From: a virus
Lineage: Duplodnaviria > Heunggongvirae > Uroviricota > Caudoviricetes
Length of the DNA stretch: 40,367 nt
IMG/VR virus record: IMGVR_UViG_2728369591_000003
Direction: 5' to 3' (one strand)
Position 1 is the first letter of the stretch. Every line of letters starts with the position of its first letter. Both the position numbers and the translations under genes were made by a program. Shown piece after piece: positions 12,537 to 35,054 of this stretch. The notes beneath the pieces were generated by a model that ran no database searches, was not told the DNA's origin, and saw only the letters and a list, made by a program, of their open reading frames with translations.

Positions 12537-12851
12537 GTATTTTTAAGTGGCGAATGCTATCTTTTCGCATCATATTGACCTTTTAATCGTTCAGGCTTAT
12601 AGTTCCCGCCGTCGTAGCAAATTCTGCGACCAGGTTTGACAGCCTGAATGATTGTGCGGACAACCGCAGATTTCCGATATTGCGGTATTTTTGTGTCCGT
12701 AAAACCGCGTTACGCCCAAATTATGGTGGGGCGTGATGGGGAGGCTTCGGCCTGCTGGTTTCACAATCGCCAGTCTGTCAACCCTGTCACGTCCTGCCAC
12801 CTGTTTGACAGCGGGTAGCAGGTTGTTAAACCTGATTGTGAGGCCGTAACT

Positions 12852-16242: not shown

Positions 16243-16365
16243 TACAATCGTTGCGGGTGCTTGAGGCTATCTGCTTCAGGCATTACCCGAAAAGCAGATA
16301 GAAGAAAGCCCCAGATAACATTACGCGTCCTGCAAGACGCTTAACATTAATCTGAGGCAATATCT

Positions 16366-16572
16366 ATGCTTAGCATACGTAGATTAGCCTCTTACCGACC
16401 AAAAGGTCAAGGAGAAGCAGGCTATGAAGCAGCAAAAAGCGATGTTAATCGCTCTGATCGTCATCTGTTTAACCGTCATTGTGACGGCACTGGTAACGAG
16501 GAAAGACCTCTGCGAGGTACGAATCCGAACCGGCCAGACGGAGGTCACTGTCTTCACAGCCTACGAATCTGA
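16366..16572 (+). CDS. mok: Mok-like overlapping reading frame (modulator of hok translation)
   Basis: 68-codon ORF in a different frame, starting 58 nt upstream of hok and overlapping almost all of it, the arrangement seen in hok/mok/sok loci. Confidence 0.35.
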   Translation: MLSIRRLASYRPKGQGEAGYEAAKSDVNRSDRHLFNRHCDGTGNEERPLRGTNPNRPDGGHCLHSLRI

Positions 16573-30411: not shown

Positions 30412-32426
30412 AAGAGCTGTGCTATGGATCTGTTTGCAGTGGAATTGAAGCCGCGAGTATTGCCTGGGAACCGTTGGGTATGCGTCCGGCGTGGTTTGCT
30501 GAAATCGAGCCTTTTCCATCTGCCGTTCTTGCGCACCGCTGGCCCCATGTCGCCAACCTTGGCGACATGACAAAACTTGCCAAAAAAGTCCTGGCTGGGG
30601 AAATCGAATCCCCTGATGTGCTCGTCGGGGGAACACCTTGTCAGGCATTCAGTATCGCTGGATTACGTGGTGGGCTTGATGATGAGCGTGGCGCGCTAAC
30701 TTTAAAGTATGTGGAGCTTGCAAATGCAATTGACGACAAACGGGCTGAGTCATTTCTCAAACCGACAGTTATCGTCTGGGAAAATGTCCCAGGAGTCCTG
30801 TCATCGGCAGATAACGCCTTCGGATGTTTCCTTGCCGGATTGGCTGGAGAAGATGCGCCATTTGAACCAGGTGATCGACCTGAATCAGGAAAAAGTAACG
30901 CGTTCTGGCGGTGGGATGGCAAAACCGGTTGCCATGCTCCAAAGTGGCCGCAGTGTGGTTGTATTTATGGACCGCAGCGAAAGGTGGCCTGGAGAATCCT
31001 TGATGCCCAATACTTCGGAGTGGCACAACGACGCCGACGCGTGTTTGTTGTCGCAAGTGCTCGAACAGACCTCGATCCCGCAACGGTACTTTTTGAGTTC
31101 GAAGGCGTGCGCCGGAATATTGCGCCGAGCAGAGGCGAGGGGAAGGAAACTACCAGATATACTTCAGACATCGCTATCAGATCTTGCGATGATACAAACA
31201 TAGTTGCCATGGCACATGGGCAAGGAGGGGCTGAGATAAAAACCGATAATTCGGCACCAACTTTGACATGTAACCATGAAGCACCAATTGTATTGCTCGG
31301 CGACGGTAGAATGCGCCGTCTTACCCCTGTCGAATGTGAAAGGCTGCAAGGTTTTCCTGATGGGCATACGTTGATCCCGACGGAAAAGCGTAAAAAAGTT
31401 AATTCAGATGAACTGGCATATCTTCGCAATCACTATCCAGATTTAAGCGAAGAAGAGGCCGCGATGCTTGCAGCTGACGGACCGCGTTACAAAGCGATCG
31501 GCAATAGTATGGCAATACCAGTAATGTGCTGGATTGGCGATCGGATTACTAAGGCCGTATGTCGGCAGAAAGAAGGAAGTGAAACAAAAGAGCGAAAAGT
31601 TAAACCAGCGGCAGAATTCGAACGGTCCATATTCAAATGGGCTGGTGGAAAATTTGGTGTTCTGGAACAAATCTTTCGCTATTTGCCAGAAGGGAAGCGC
31701 CTGATCGAACCTTTTGTCGGTGGCGGAGCTGTCTTCACGAATGCCGGATACCAGGAAAATCTGCTAAATGATGTGAATGCTGACCTGATTAACTTTTACA
31801 AGACTCTGCAACGCGAGGCGCATTCACTTATCACACTGGCGCATCGTTTCTTCCAGGACTACAACACACAGGAAGGATACCTGGCAGTACGGAATGCGTT
31901 TAACAAACAAGTCTATGATGATTTACATCGCGCAGCGGCGTTTTTGTTCCTGAACCGACATTGTTTTAACGGATTGACGCGTTACAACCAGGCCGGTGAG
32001 TTCAATGTCGGTTACGGGAAGTATAAAACTCCGTATTTCCCATTACAGGAGATGGAAGCCTTCCTCGGTGCGGAAGGGCGGTCTGAGTTTGTATGCGGTG
32101 ATTTTGCAGCGGTGATTGAAGCTGCCGGAGAAGGAGATGTCATCTTTTGCGATCCGCCGTATGAACCGCTTCCAAATACAGAGGGATTCACGAACTATTC
32201 CGGTCATGACTTTAAGTTTGAAGAGCAAAAACGCCTGGTGTCTCTGTTGACGGATGCTCATCGTCGAGGTGCAAAGGTTCTCATTACTAACAGTGGCGCG
32301 CCAAACATCAGAGAGCTTTATCATGACAGTGGCTTCAGAGTGGAACCTCTTTTTGCCAGACGTTCTGTGTCTTGTAAGGGGGACACTCGAGGTGTAGCTC
32401 ATGACGTTTTGGGTATATTGCTCTAA
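30408..32426 (+). CDS. dmt: Bifunctional DNA methyltransferase (672 aa): N-terminal C5-cytosine MTase fused to C-terminal Dam-like N6-adenine MTase
   Basis: GTG start overlapping the hrdC stop, after GGAGAGG. N-terminal half has C5-MTase motifs ([10 protein letters not shown]; [12 protein letters not shown]; ENVPGV). C-terminal half has Dam-type motifs (FKWAGGK; [10 protein letters not shown]; DPPY). Same fusion architecture as P1 Dmt. Confidence 0.9.
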
Positions 32427-32443
32427 TAAATTTATTAGTGTAA
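32417..32443. promoter_or_regulatory. Perfect C1 operator 17-mer overlapping the dmt stop codon, with an inverted partner half-site
   Basis: ATTGCTCTAATAAATTT at 32417-32433 is an exact consensus match and encodes the last residues and stop of Dmt. The overlapping CACTAATAAATTT on the opposite strand (to 32443) forms a second, imperfect site in inverted orientation. Confidence 0.55.
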
Positions 32444-32607
32444 TATCGCCTCAATGAATCGTGATTTATAGAGCGATTTAGCTGTTAGCCGCGACAGGCG
32501 CGGCGGTAAGCATGGCTGGGCCTAGTCCTCCCAGACAAACCACCGAGTTGCCAGGTTGACCATGCGCCTAAGTGGCAACGCCGAAGTGCGTTACGAGCTT
32601 CCAGTTT

Positions 32608-32634
32608 GCCCATCTTCGGGTGGGCGTTTTTTTC
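32608..32634 (+). terminator. Rho-independent terminator
   Basis: GCCCATC ttcg GGTGGGC followed by GTTTTTTTC. Confidence 0.6.
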
Positions 32635-33098
32635 AGGGTTTTCGTCATGGTTAGCGACTTTGCGGCGGTTTAGAAACTGACCATTAAAGTAAATGCAAAC
32701 GATGATCTGATGATGGTAGCGGCCTAAGAAGCCAGATGCCACGGGGTATGAGTCGTCCCCCGTCAAAAAATCGACCGCAGAGTGTCCCCGTCTGTGTATT
32801 AGGGAACGGGGAGGCACAACAGGTAAGGGCGCTGGTGTGATTAACCAGATGAACGAGAAGGGGCCATCTGTTGGTCAGCGTCCTTTCCTGTTGCGTTTTC
32901 TTTTCAGCGTAACAGCGGTGCTTAACAGCACTTTGGGTACAGTTCCACGAATTTACGGGTATATCCCGTCATGCTGAAGGCGCTAATCACGCTGGAAGCC
33001 AGGGTTGTGCATCCCCTGTTACCGAATTGCAGCCAGGGCGCGGTGCGCCGAAAAGCATACGGAGGTGGAAGCCCTCGCCGGAGACGTACCCGGCAAGT

Positions 33099-33174
33099 GA
33101 TGGTGTAGCTCAGTTGGTAGAGCGCCTGCCTTGTAAGCAGGATGTCAGCGGTTCGAGTCCGTTAATCGGCACCA
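33099..33174 (+). tRNA. tRNA-Thr(UGU)-like gene with an imperfect acceptor stem (possibly degenerate)
   Basis: 76 nt ending in encoded CCA. D arm (GCTC AGTTGGTA GAGC), anticodon arm (CCTGC CTTGTAA GCAGG, anticodon UGU) and T arm (AGCGG TTCGAGT CCGTT) are canonical. The 5' acceptor strand GATGGTG pairs with the 3' strand AATCGGC at only 5 of 7 positions (two G-U pairs, two mismatches). Confidence 0.45.
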
Positions 33175-33402
33175 GCACAACAGGTAAGGGTATTTTGCGA
33201 CGTCGGAGATCGCCGAGCTTGGCAGAGGGTTCGAATCCCTACGAAGTACCCTTACCGTTGTGATGAAGTGCAGCTCTTTGAAGCAACCAGAAGATAAGCA
33301 TCTGGCTTCACAACATAAACCGCAGGAACGACCAATAAACGGTAGTCCGTATGGAGAACACCCCGTTGAGGAAGAGGCCTGGCCGGAACCGTAACCGGCA
33401 CT

Positions 33403-33494
33403 ACAACGTTGAGAACACTGGCGTAACGGGGTCATATCCCAATCTACGAATAAATGTTGCGTTGCAGCGTGACAACCAGTGTTCTCAACATTGT
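33403..33494 (+). repeat. Structured repeat element, copy A (long stem enclosing a conserved core)
   Basis: ACAACGTTGAGAACACTGG (33403-33421) pairs with CCAGTGTTCTCAACATTGT (33476-33494) at 18 of 19 positions and encloses the core CGTAACGGGGTCATATCCCAATCTACG. Confidence 0.55.
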
Positions 33495-33684
33495 GGTGAA
33501 TGCACAGGCTGATGTGCCGCAACTACAGTAGTGCGCGCTTTGCGGGGCTTGCTACAACCCTGTGTCGGAGTTCAGCACCGACCATCACAGTTTGATTCTC
33601 TGGCATGAGCATAACGCTGAAATAAGTCCAGCCTGGTGCGGCCCGATCACCCGCCGTTAGCTCCACGAAACGGAGCACGTAACA

Positions 33685-33766
33685 GGTAAGAGCATTCTCC
33701 TGTAACGGGTTCATATCCCAATCTACAGGTCCACCAAGAATGCTCTTTCCGTTGCGGTGAATGCGG
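33685..33766 (+). repeat. Structured repeat element, copy B
   Basis: Stem AAGAGCATTCT / AGAATGCTCTT (33688-33698 with 33737-33747) encloses the core CTGTAACGGGTTCATATCCCAATCTACAGG. The core is conserved with copy A while the stems differ but stay complementary. Shared 3' flank GYGGTGAATGC. Confidence 0.55.
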
Positions 33767-33906
33767 CTAAGCGCACGCGGGGAAATGGTTATATCAGTCC
33801 ATTCATTTCTCCTTGTTTCCCCGTCCACGGTGGATAACCAGCCAAAGGACACCGGGAGGCACCCGGCACCGCAGCTTTTTTATTCGTTAAATAATGGAGT
33901 GAGAGG

Positions 33907-34143
33907 ATGCAGAACAATCCGAACAAATGTCGAACGCTATGGGTGCGGTTATATATTTATGCCGTCCTCTGTTTGATTGTGTCACTGGTTCTGTATGTTT
34001 GGCTTTTGCCAAATATGATCTCATCTAACAGCACAATACTTGTATTGTTGGGAGTCCTTCTCGCGCTCATTTACCCGGCTTTCGCAGTAGTCTTTTTTCG
34101 TGAAAAAACCAGGAAATTAATTAATGAAAAAAACGTTGATTAG
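33907..34143 (+). CDS. upl: Small two-TM membrane protein (78 aa), upl position
   Basis: ATG at 33907 with GGAG RBS. Two hydrophobic helices. Overlaps the start of the downstream SPFH lipoprotein gene. Confidence 0.5.
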   Translation: MQNNPNKCRTLWVRLYIYAVLCLIVSLVLYVWLLPNMISSNSTILVLLGVLLALIYPAFAVVFFREKTRKLINEKNVD

Positions 34144-34951
34144 TGCAGCGATTATTTTGGGTTCTTTATGTCTGACCGGATGCGATCGGGTAGAGCCAGG
34201 TAACGTAGGGATCAAAGTAAATAAGCTGGGGGATGATAAAGGTATCGGTGAAGTAGTTGGCGTTGGTCGCTACTGGACAGGCTTGAATACTGAAGTTTAT
34301 ATCTTCCCGACCTTTAAGCAAATGAAGACATACGATGAGCCGTTCAGCTTCCAGATGAGCGACGGAACAACCATTGGTTACCACATCGGCGTAGCCTACA
34401 AGGTTGATCCAGCAAAAGTCACAACGGTATTTCAGACCTATCGCAAAGGTGTAGATGATATTACTGATACCGATCTACGCCAGAAGGTTGCAGATGCTCT
34501 GAACCGGTTAGCCAGCAAAATGACCACCGACAAATTTATCGACGGTGGCAAATCTGAATTGCTTGATGCAGCCCTTAAAGACATTCAGGAAGAAATGACG
34601 CCAATCGGCATTCAGGTGATGAGCCTCTCTTATGTAGGTAAGCCAGAATACCCGCCAACAGTTATTGACAGTATTAACGCCAAAGTCACGGCAAACCAAA
34701 AAACCCTGCAACGCGAGCAAGAGGTCAAACAACGTGAAGCAGAGGCCAACATGCTGCGCGCGGAAGCTGCCGGACAGGCTGATGCTATTCGCACAAAAGC
34801 CCAGGCCGAAGCTGATGCCATTCGTTTACGTGGTGAAGCTCTGCGCCAGAACCCCGGTGTTATGGAGTTGGAAGCGATCAACAAATGGAACGGTACATTA
34901 CCGCAGTATATGACCAGTAATACCGCTGTTCCGTTTGTTCCGGTGAAATAA
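34124..34951 (+). CDS. plp: SPFH/band-7 (prohibitin-like) lipoprotein (275 aa)
   Basis: ATG at 34124 with AGGAAA RBS. Lipobox LTGC. Then an SPFH-like core and a C-terminal Ala/Glu/Arg/Gln-rich coiled coil (QREQEVKQREAEANMLRAEAAGQADAIRTKAQAEADAIRLRGEALRQ). Confidence 0.7.
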   Translation: MKKTLISAAIILGSLCLTGCDRVEPGNVGIKVNKLGDDKGIGEVVGVGRYWTGLNTEVYIFPTFKQMKTYDEPFSFQMSDGTTIGYHIGVAYKVDPAKVTTVFQTYRKGVDDITDTDLRQKVADALNRLASKMTTDKFIDGGKSELLDAALKDIQEEMTPIGIQVMSLSYVGKPEYPPTVIDSINAKVTANQKTLQREQEVKQREAEANMLRAEAAGQADAIRTKAQAEADAIRLRGEALRQNPGVMELEAINKWNGTLPQYMTSNTAVPFVPVK

Positions 34952-34978: not shown

Positions 34979-35054
34979 GGCCCTTTAGCTCAGTGGTTAG
35001 AGCTGGCGACTCATAATCGCACGGTCACCGGTTCAAGTCCGGTAGGGGCCACCA
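34979..35054 (+). tRNA. tRNA-Ile2 (anticodon CAU, lysidine type)
   Basis: 76 nt. Acceptor GGCCCTT/AGGGGCC, D arm GCTC AGTGGTTA GAGC, anticodon loop CTCATAA, T arm ACCGG TTCAAGT CCGGT, CCA encoded. Close to E. coli ileX rather than initiator or elongator tRNA-Met. Confidence 0.85.

Follow-up and report, generated by a model that had tools for sequence, protein, structure and literature searches.

Long covarying stem-loops beside tRNA and small RNA genes in P1-like phage-plasmids and other temperate enterobacterial phages

Introduction

In the reference record of phage P1, an RNA-rich island starts with the C1 operator, the Pban promoters and a 'dicF-like region', followed by tRNA-Asn and tRNA-Thr. 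The same island is found in IMG/VR virus record IMGVR_UViG_2728369591_000003, a DNA of 40,367 nucleotides that was analysed as a whole and is referred to here as the window; positions 32427-33906 of it are 99% identical to P1 and to hundreds of P1-like phage-plasmids. A preliminary description of this DNA reported two elements (33403-33494 and 33685-33766) in which stems of 11-19 bp enclose a near-identical core, together with two further hairpins (32815-32900 and 33176-33262), and proposed that selection acts on an RNA structure in a 'tRNA island' that lacks a convincing open reading frame (ORF). The locus raises the question of what these hairpins are: whether they are related to one another, whether the structure under selection is one of RNA or of DNA, and what they might do next to tRNA and small RNA (sRNA) genes. 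All four hairpins are members of one RNA stem-loop family, here called H1, which extends well beyond P1.

Four long hairpins with one plan

All four hairpins were present at, or within a few bases of, the positions first given for them. The + strand RNA folds of H1-A, H1-B, H1-C and H1-D have energies of -45.9, -42.7, -49.2 and -35.8 kcal/mol, respectively (z-scores of -4.9, -5.7, -7.3 and -4.5), and none of 200 dinucleotide shuffles was equally stable. A repeat search located inverted-repeat arms at 33399-33421/33476-33498 (23 nt, 91% complementary), 33685-33698/33737-33750, 32817-32834/32876-32893 and 33183-33195/33244-33256. Counting a bulge or mismatch, the stems are about 21-23 bp long, rather than the 11-19 bp first reported.

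The near-identical core was confirmed as a 25-nt sequence occurring twice with 24 of 25 nt the same, once in the apex of H1-C (33423-33447), where it is accompanied by a second small hairpin, and once in the apex of H1-D (33702-33726), where it is closed by CCTGTA/TACAGG. The co-variation proposed for the short helix closing the core (CGTA/TACG versus CCTGTA/TACAGG) holds for one compensated pair (C-G to U-A), the remainder being an extension by 2 bp. Strong covariation sits in the long basal stems across the family, not in the core-closing helix, and the core is one among many interchangeable apical inserts; 13 nt of the H1-D core are deleted in a natural variant (L084). The apex of H1-B, a hairpin that starts 1 nt after the CCA of a tRNA, consists of a small hairpin and a T-arm-like hairpin, AGAGGGTTCGAATCCCTAC (33224-33242). 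H1-A, located 3' of a tmRNA-tag-like module described below, is present in 58 of 63 full-length P1-like islands and has a diverged but syntenic counterpart in SSU5-like islands, while H1-C is present in 62 of the 63. A search for antisense targets of the apical loops in the window gave no complement of 10 nt or more for the cores or the H1-B apex, and only two 11-nt complements, which is chance level, for the H1-A apex.

A widespread family absent from Rfam

Relatives were collected from 103 IMG/VR loci carrying the core, three SSU5-like phage-plasmid islands, two Yersinia prophages, lambdoid phage HK629, Salmonella phage Sasha, 110 further viral contigs and ST64B. Over these loci 25 distinct hairpin types were distinguished, in P1-like and SSU5-like phage-plasmids, lambdoid prophages, Sashavirus, and ST64B- and Yersinia-type prophages. 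A basal stem of 18-24 bp, usually CACAAC(A)GGTAAGRG.../...CYCTTACCGTTGTG, is found in every type below a variable apex. The base is usually CACAAC with an optional bulged A, which the C, G and A types and L226 lack, and the hairpin closes with a 3' GTTGTG. The arm, of 12-16 nt, takes the forms GGTAAGRGYA.., GTTGAGNNCA.., GATAAGATCA.. and AGAATGGGCGG.., and the apices (25-95 nt) are non-homologous between types. The earlier observation that the stems differ in sequence and remain complementary holds over 25 types.

Within the whole window, a covariance model built from the basal stems of the relatives matched only H1-B, H1-C and H1-D, and simple motif searches gave no H1 copy outside the island. 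Rfam searches of the window and the relatives at gathering and permissive thresholds returned nothing for the hairpins even at E<=10 beyond chance microRNA (miRNA)-like matches, in keeping with the preliminary statement that they could not be placed in a known family. H1 is a conserved, widespread RNA structural family that is absent from Rfam 15, and a literature search found no paper on these hairpins or on P1 small RNAs in the ban leader. In complete E. coli genomes (n=5,426), the P1-type region was found in 624 and the lambdoid-type unit in 340; H1 also occurs in SfV-type prophages. The hairpins are always placed in operon leaders or intergenic parts, beside tRNAs or STnc100/PasD-type sRNAs. 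A 17-mer scan of 596 Gb of genomes added two real Yersinia loci, nearly all of the 120 matches listed being due to chance because the pattern is too short.

Covariation and strand of the basal stem

Pairing was counted in the 20-bp basal stem of 12 types, with the A types left out and with paired columns that were re-derived after MAFFT, applied to the raw arms, had mis-registered bulged against unbulged types. In this alignment 97.9% of cells are paired and 10 of the 20 pairs have changed on both sides, a result reached by 0 of 500 shuffles, and sliding the partner columns by 1-3 positions reduced pairing to 33-55%. These values uphold the proposal that selection acts on structure over sequence. 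A search for compensatory changes among P1-like islands had also been suggested; variation within P1 proved too sparse for this, and it was across the wider family that covariation was found.

In order to assign the structure to a strand, G·U and A·C pairs were counted after the arms had been aligned with Watson-Crick pairs alone as matches, an A·C pair being the would-be G·U of the other strand. There were 31 G·U against 6 A·C pairs on the + strand over 25 types (20 against 9 on 18 types), and the minimum free energy (MFE) was lower for the + strand in 15 of 18 types. In 100 of 110 lambdoid loci most long ORFs are co-oriented with H1, and so are the tRNAs in every island. Together, this evidence favours a sense-strand RNA and agrees with the structure having been placed at the RNA level in the preliminary description.

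Stable RNA ends upstream and tRNA-shaped modules downstream

H1 has a close positional relationship with the RNA that precedes it. In P1-like and SSU5-like islands it begins 0-2 nt after the CCA of tRNA-Thr, tRNA-Asn or tRNA-Ser, whereas lambdoid prophages and ST64B have an intrinsic terminator whose U-tract ends 5-6 nt before H1. The remaining copies are preceded, at a distance of 1-7 nt, by a small CCGG-N8-CCGG hairpin, the 3' part of which resembles the 3' end of tRNA-Thr; the same leader hairpin lies 5' of H1 in the Sashavirus and Yersinia copies. H1 lies flush with the 3' ends before it. The tRNAs in these islands are themselves spaced 2-5 nt apart, so that the slot taken by H1 is like that of a tRNA.

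The sequence directly 3' of H1 is (A/G)UGAA(U/G), after which comes a short hairpin, for example GCACAGGCUGAUGUGC. GUUGUG, with which H1 ends, runs into a helix of 7-9 bp with a partner, CA(C/U)CACAAC, located 49-209 nt downstream, and this partner covaries (GTG/CAC, ATG/CAT, AGG/CTT, GCGGTG/CACCGC, GTA/TAC, GTC/GGC). The base of H1 and the closing helix of the downstream module use a common strand and are mutually exclusive. In the MFE structure of H1-D with its module (unit 'D+E') the closing helix forms and the base of H1-D opens, whereas the base stays closed in the MFE structure of H1-C with its module (Table 1). In the lambdoid and Sasha modules the partner strand is followed by CCA, giving an N-CCA end. 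The cloverleaf-like module after H1-C has an unexceptional fold energy (z -0.44), and ARAGORN recognised no module as a tRNA. When the region was tested with RF00005 and ARAGORN, 33099-33171 and 34979-35051 scored and none of the four hairpins did. H1-B, H1-C and H1-D also differ from intrinsic terminators in being followed by (A/G)UGAA(G/U), not by a U-tract; H1-A does have a U-rich tail, with a loop too large for the terminator scan to judge.

The flank of H1-D, not the hairpin, is matched by Rfam STnc100 (RF02076) at 33753-33873 with 37.8 bits, against a gathering score of 47, over model positions 31-147 of 206. The match covers the outer closing helix and the CCGGGAGGCACCCGG hairpin of the STnc100/PasD prophage sRNA (Zhu, Shabalina & Storz, bioRxiv 10.64898/2026.05.13.724894), and the same match is found beside a lambdoid H1 with 34.4 bits, also below 47. 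H1 loci and STnc100 are alike in being prophage-borne and near tRNAs; they are unlike in that the score falls short of the gathering score and the H1 hairpins lie outside the matched part of the model, and no upstream long hairpin is described for STnc100/PasD (Zhu, Shabalina & Storz, bioRxiv 10.64898/2026.05.13.724894). The module at 33751-33884, which lies last in the island and ends in a U-run, is a candidate sRNA of the Hfq type.

In ST64B-, SfV- and Yersinia-type prophages, H1 and its module are located in the early-operon leader, between the cI-like repressor/promoter region and the first early gene and after an internal terminator (positions 1040-1850 of locus L338 for ST64B; locus L123 for Yersinia). 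A second, A-type hairpin is present in ST64B at about 1714-1803 of L338. In the Yersinia massiliensis prophage (L123, 1255-1382, - strand) the H1 copy is directly followed by a 128-nt tRNA-like RNA with an Rfam tRNA score of 40.3 bits and no ARAGORN call. This RNA has an odd anticodon loop (AGAAGAG), ends in ACC, not CCA, and contains a 57-nt insert in the variable region with AAGGTTCATAACCCA, which resembles the P1 core.

Table 1. Positions of the hairpins, modules, leader hairpins, tRNA and annotated ORFs of the island, numbered as in the window
Feature	Position	Strand	Structure	Remarks
H1-A	32815-32895	+	long hairpin CACAACAGGTAAGGGCG...CGTCCTTTCCTGTTGCG, then U-rich tail CGUUUUCUUUUC	'A-type', no bulged A
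H1-B	33176-33262	+	basal stem CACAAC-A-GGTAAGGGTA/TACCCTTACC-GTTGTG	covariance model match 39.8 bits
H1-C	33401-33496	+	diverged yet complementary stem CTACAAC-GTTGAGAACACTGG/CCAGTGTTCTCAAC-ATTGTGG	covariance model match 41.7 bits
H1-D	33678-33756	+	stem CGTAAC-A-GGTAAGAGCATTCT/AGAATGCTCTTTCC-GTTGCG	covariance model match 31.5 bits
Module after H1-B	33257-33314	+	closed by GUUGUGA (33257-33263, last bases of H1-B)/UCACAAC (33308-33314)	partner covaries GTGATG/CATCAC, GTGAGG/CTTCAC
Module after H1-C	33489-33591	+	four-arm cloverleaf-like fold closed by AUUGUGGUG/CAUCACAGU	D-position arm GCACAGGCUGAUGUGC (33502-33517), T-position arm GUCGGAGUUCAGCACCGAC (33564-33582)
Module after H1-D	33751-33884	+	STnc100/PasD-like closed domain, UGCGGUG (overlaps H1-D 3' base)/CACCGCA, then U-run	Rfam STnc100 below threshold
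Leader hairpin of H1-C	33381-33399	+	GGCCGGAACCGTAACCGGC, directly 5' of H1-C	3' part CCGTAACCGGCACTA resembles tRNA-Thr 3' end CCGTTAATCGGCACCA
Similar small hairpins	32786-32811 (before H1-A), 33077-33094 (before tRNA), 33654-33673 (before H1-D)	+		
Chimeric tRNA	33099-33171	+	5' acceptor strand of tRNA-Asn joined at TAGCTCAG to tRNA-Thr(UGU)	Rfam tRNA 54.8 bits
plp ('putative lipoprotein', P1 record)	33145-33522	-	ORF, judged spurious	overlaps tRNA 3' end, H1-B and H1-C
upl (P1 record)	33523-33714	-	ORF, judged spurious	ATG inside H1-D core

Mosaicism of the islands

The 103 P1-like loci represent 98 different islands, the full-length ones ranging from 1099 to 1959 nt. Their tRNA sets are Asn and Thr; Asn, Tyr and Thr; the same with Ser added; or Arg, Tyr, Thr and Ser. 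Hairpins are gained or lost as well, types F and G being present in 30 and 4, respectively, of the 63 full-length P1-like islands. Inserted or alternative segments join directly after H1 and GUGAUGAA, and megablast matches of the lambdoid unit in E. coli chromosomes break just after H1. P1-like and SSU5-like plasmids, which are otherwise unrelated, have cassettes in common at 83-95% identity. Both the mosaicism and the common cassettes can be attributed to recombination between the conserved arms.

A miniature inverted-repeat transposable element or other dispersed palindromic repeat was considered and rejected: the copies in the window lie within the island only, copies occupy one or two places per E. 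coli genome, and those of the same genome have very different arms and apices. H1 was not seen to be flanked by target-site duplications.

The annotated genes plp and upl

In the P1 record, hairpins H1-B, H1-C and H1-D are overlain by two minus-strand ORFs, plp and upl, which also means that the gene names of the preliminary description need to be corrected, as the + strand ORF at 33907-34143 is not P1 upl. If the region encodes the proteins Plp and Upl, the core would be a common peptide motif, VDWDM(T/N)PL, and this reading is favoured by the P1 annotation and by the core copies, which are separated by 279 nt (93 codons) and share one frame in the two ORFs. Against it, only 11 of 34 unique variants have an intact plp and 4 of 20 an intact longer, GTG-started upl, plp/upl are interrupted by insertions of 173, 161 and 458 nt, plp overlaps a tRNA, and the translations of both ORFs are rich in Cys, Arg and Ser and of low plausibility. 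Nothing significant was found in Pfam for either ORF (the sole match, for upl, is far below the cutoff), and the Prokaryotic Genome Annotation Pipeline (PGAP) calls no coding sequence over plp/upl in more than 600 RefSeq plasmids. In RNA-seq of P1vir, 'upl' is listed as expressed and its reads are counted (PMC8201110). The plp/upl region was non-essential for lytic growth in a CRISPR interference (CRISPRi; clustered regularly interspaced short palindromic repeats) study of P1. Given that the ORFs are broken in most variants, have neither a significant Pfam match nor a PGAP call, and lie in a non-essential region, plp and upl are regarded as spurious; they are probably annotation artefacts over structured RNA, and it is very hard to credit that two proteins are encoded here. 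The preliminary statement that the region has no convincing ORF holds despite the P1 annotation.

A possible role in RNA processing and its alternatives

The reading that we prefer, with a confidence a little short of even, is that H1 is a sense-strand RNA stem-loop of the C1-controlled ban-operon leader of P1 that acts as punctuation for RNA processing. H1 would be transcribed on the tRNA strand within this leader. It abuts the 3' end of a preceding stable RNA, whether a tRNA CCA, a terminator or a small leader hairpin, and is followed by GUG(A/G)UGAAU and a tRNA-shaped, STnc100-like closed module, whose closing helix takes up the H1 3' strand again. In a polycistronic RNA punctuated in this way, the double-stranded H1 stem of about two turns might be cut by RNase III or might protect ends, and cleavage or protection would define where the upstream tRNA or terminated RNA ends (3') and where the downstream RNA begins (5'). 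As a side effect, the conserved arms may provide recombination homology that lets unrelated phages swap tRNA/sRNA cassettes. The existence of the hairpins, their membership of one family, the covariation, strand and positions and the mutually exclusive helices are established by the analysis, whereas cleavage or protection, and the nuclease responsible, are inferred. Transcription of the leader is favoured by the Pban promoters and C1 operator that the P1 record has at the island start, and by the P1vir RNA-seq reads over 'upl' (PMC8201110). The constant helix of 18-24 bp, the flush position, the linked, processed-looking module and the occurrence in operon leaders that bear terminators all fit a punctuation element, and the basal helices of all types have the size of an RNase III substrate (double-stranded RNA of about 20 bp or more).

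RNase III stems are known to separate the RNAs of polycistronic transcripts, as at the R1.1-type sites of T7, lambda sib, the stalks of rRNA operons and in the maturation of dicF. H1 resembles these in being a helix of about two turns with a bulge or mismatch between functional RNAs, and in lying directly after a terminator or stable 3' structure, as at sib; it differs in its conserved base sequence and large variable apices, and its cleavage would be by analogy. A similar layout occurs in the tRNA-miRNA units of murine gammaherpesvirus 68, in which a tRNA-like RNA is directly followed by hairpins. In H1 a hairpin of about 20 bp likewise comes at once after a tRNA or tRNA-like RNA, so that 3' processing of the tRNA would free the hairpin, and the sole weak Rfam matches on H1 are to miRNA-precursor models. 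The host of H1, however, is bacterial and has no Dicer pathway, and the likeness is one of layout only.

Several points weigh against H1 being a processing element. Any involvement of RNase III, RNase P or RNase E is a guess, and a plain processing stem leaves unexplained both the strong sequence conservation of the stem base across unrelated phages and the recurrent T-arm-like hairpins in the apices. The alignment used for the pair count leans towards structure, since its columns were made by pairing the arms, although the complementarity of very different arm sequences can be seen directly; the types are paralogs and orthologs, so that the p-values, including the binomial ones, are optimistic. 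Polymorphism within P1 is not lower at paired sites (25 changes in 298 sites) than at unpaired sites (9 in 112), and its 11 G·U against 5 A·C come from too little variation to help. The dispensability of the region in the CRISPRi study is a further point of this kind.

The observations on the mutually exclusive helices can be read in another way, in which H1 is an RNA switch or folding guide: its base (CACAAC/GUUGUG) would compete with the closing helix of the module (GUUGUGGUG/CACCACAAC), and H1 would be a structured 5' leader controlling the tRNA-like fold and its maturation, for instance by RNase P, and not a cleavage site. Both helices do covary with the common strand, as GUUGCG pairs with CG(U/C)AAC upstream and with CACCGCAAC downstream, the two MFE structures differ in whether the base is open, the Yersinia H1 is followed at once by the RNA scored as a tRNA (40.3 bits), and the lambdoid and Sasha modules have N-CCA ends. 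Yet the A types and the last hairpin of the SSU5-like islands are H1 copies with no downstream partner, the three-way covariation amounts to about one evolutionary event, ARAGORN calls no module a tRNA and one module folds no better than shuffles; we consider a switch unlikely. If instead H1 acts as DNA, either as an attC-like recombination site or as hairpin-forming DNA that moves tRNA/sRNA cassettes, its RNA structure would be incidental. H1 elements are, like integron attC sites, imperfect palindromes of 60-140 nt that lie where cassettes meet; their ends (..AAC/GTT..) are conserved, and their centre differs in sequence and in length (60-138 nt) and keeps its pairing. The high mosaicism of the islands (98 unique variants in 103 loci, with differing tRNA sets), the cassettes common to unrelated phage-plasmid families and a site-specific integrase 1-2 kb downstream in SSU5-like islands would suit such a role. 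Unlike attC, H1 has neither IntI nor a fixed set of extrahelical bases, as the single bulged A is not found in all types. The R''/R' consensus RYYYAAC/GTTRRRY is matched in part: nearly all types have AAC...GTT, and the ends CACAAC/GTTGTG alternate R and Y. The G·U excess of 31 to 6 and the lower + strand energy are unexpected for DNA palindromes, and together with the fixed orientation relative to transcription they point to RNA; neither the P1 nor the HK629 annotation has an integrase gene near the island, and ordinary homologous recombination between repeats of 20-30 nt accounts for the mosaicism. A DNA-level role is quite unlikely on this balance.

The tRNA-like slot of H1 also suggests stable sRNAs that mimic tRNAs, acting as decoys or sponges for tRNA-directed nucleases, modification enzymes or tRNA-binding factors and excised by tRNA processing. 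Several apices contain T-arm-like hairpins (AGGGTTCGAATCCCT in H1-B, GTAGAGTTCGACTCTCTAC in L004; the Yersinia copy has two), 2 loop bases distinguish the core GGGTTCATATCCC from a canonical T arm, and the islands carry tRNAs for Asn, Tyr, Thr, Ser and Arg, kinds that are targets of colicins and anticodon nucleases. A comparable architecture is that of YrlA, a bacterial Y RNA with a long stem containing a single-base bulge and T-arm-like and other small apical hairpins; H1 has a bulged long stem and T-arm-like apical hairpins too, but its stem has no Ro-binding sequence. The Y-RNA models of Rfam gave no match at E<=10 over 32400-33920, and the P1 annotation of the region lists no rsr (Ro) gene, no search having been aimed at Ro/TROVE among the window proteins. 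A T-loop is missing from most apices, the core carries U in place of the universal T-loop A58 and loses 13 nt in a natural variant, the hairpins match no tRNA, YrlA or other tRNA-like Rfam model, and no CCA follows H1, which makes tRNA mimics distinctly improbable. Finally, the hairpins may be non-functional relics, decayed tRNA-linked repeats or palindromes that hitch-hike with useful tRNA/sRNA cassettes. The RtT RNA of the E. coli tyrT operon belongs to the tRNA-linked repeats, which contain copies of the tRNA 3' end and are released from the tRNA precursor, and the repeat units of the H1 region, 3' of tRNA genes, similarly carry copies of tRNA 3' ends; they have no sequence or Rfam similarity to RtT (no RtT match at E<=10) and are built around the long hairpin. 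The resemblance of the leader hairpins to remnants of the tRNA-Thr 3' end, the coming and going of F (30/63) and G (4/63), the non-essential nature of the region and the equal polymorphism of paired and unpaired sites within P1 would all be expected of relics. Against relics, many compensatory changes across five or more phage lineages have preserved the pairing, the G·U bias is specific to one strand, and H1 keeps an invariant position with respect to the 3' ends before it and the GUGAAU module after it, so that we hold this explanation to be rather improbable.

An extension of the punctuation reading would make H1 and the tRNA-shaped module a modular 'RNA cassette' system of temperate enterobacterial phages. 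The hairpin would direct host tRNA-type or RNase III processing through an exclusive-helix switch that frees tRNAs and Hfq-type sRNAs, and would also be the joint for cassette exchange, forming an integron-like platform for RNA genes; this we regard as a fairly improbable proposal. In a more radical variant, the conserved bulged stem base could bind RNA polymerase or another host factor and carry transcription through the terminators of the island, like put RNAs. If the hairpins do define excision or stabilisation, they are a missing part of the maturation of prophage tRNAs and virulence-linked sRNAs, and would also explain the movement of cassettes between phages. P1 is a reference phage, yet two of its catalogued genes appear to be artefacts over conserved RNA structures, and thousands of phage and plasmid records would be better annotated with a curated covariance model.

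A tmRNA-like tag template upstream of H1-A

A template resembling the tag-encoding part of transfer-messenger RNA (tmRNA) is located at 32695-32727 (+ strand), within about 32504-33025, and reads ..AAAGUAAAU GCA AAC GAU GAU CUG AUG AUG GUA GCG GCC UAA, encoding ANDDLMMVAA*; the SsrA tag of E. coli, for comparison, is ANDENYALAA. The Rfam model tmRNA_permuted scored 24.1 bits (E=0.016) on this region, and ARAGORN called a tmRNA at a relaxed threshold only, with none at default. The tag template is present in all 63 full-length P1-like islands, with the variants ANDNLMMVAA and ANDDLMMAAA, and SSU5-like islands have the same layout with the tags ANEEVYLAVA and ANDNQYLAVA. It is enclosed by a helix (32654-32671/32768-32785) that is followed by H1-A. 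The tag region showed no convincing tRNA-like domain, G3·U70 pair or CCA end, and no paper on a P1 tmRNA-like element was found in a literature search.

Other features of the window

The DicF-like region of the P1 annotation (32541-32633) ends in a strong intrinsic terminator at 32604-32633, just 3' of the Pban promoters, which was the sole intrinsic terminator found by the scan in the island stretch. U-runs after H1-A and after the module ending at 33884 are further terminator-like signals in the ban leader, so that transcription of this leader must pass several such signals to reach the downstream genes.

The term 'tRNA island' does not suit the window, which is not tRNA-rich: alignment with P1 showed that 78 nt are missing, a deletion that fused tRNA-Asn and tRNA-Thr at their common TAGCTCAG and left a single Asn/Thr chimera with a mismatched acceptor stem. 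The fused acceptor stem accounts for this tRNA being scored by Rfam whereas ARAGORN makes no call. The junction was found in none of the other fetched loci, and the chimeric tRNA is probably non-functional or may be an assembly artefact.

On the 3' side of the island, a 78-aa ORF (33907-34143, + strand) and a gene for a 275-aa SPFH-domain protein together span 33907-34951 and replace tciA-tciB-tciC of P1, and a tRNA with a CAU anticodon follows the SPFH-domain gene at 34979-35054. The other Rfam matches above threshold in the window were the sok antitoxin RNA (114 bits), the P1 C4 antisense RNA (68 bits) and a1/b1 targets (47.1 bits) (16255-16429, 12597-12804), all of which are expected in P1.

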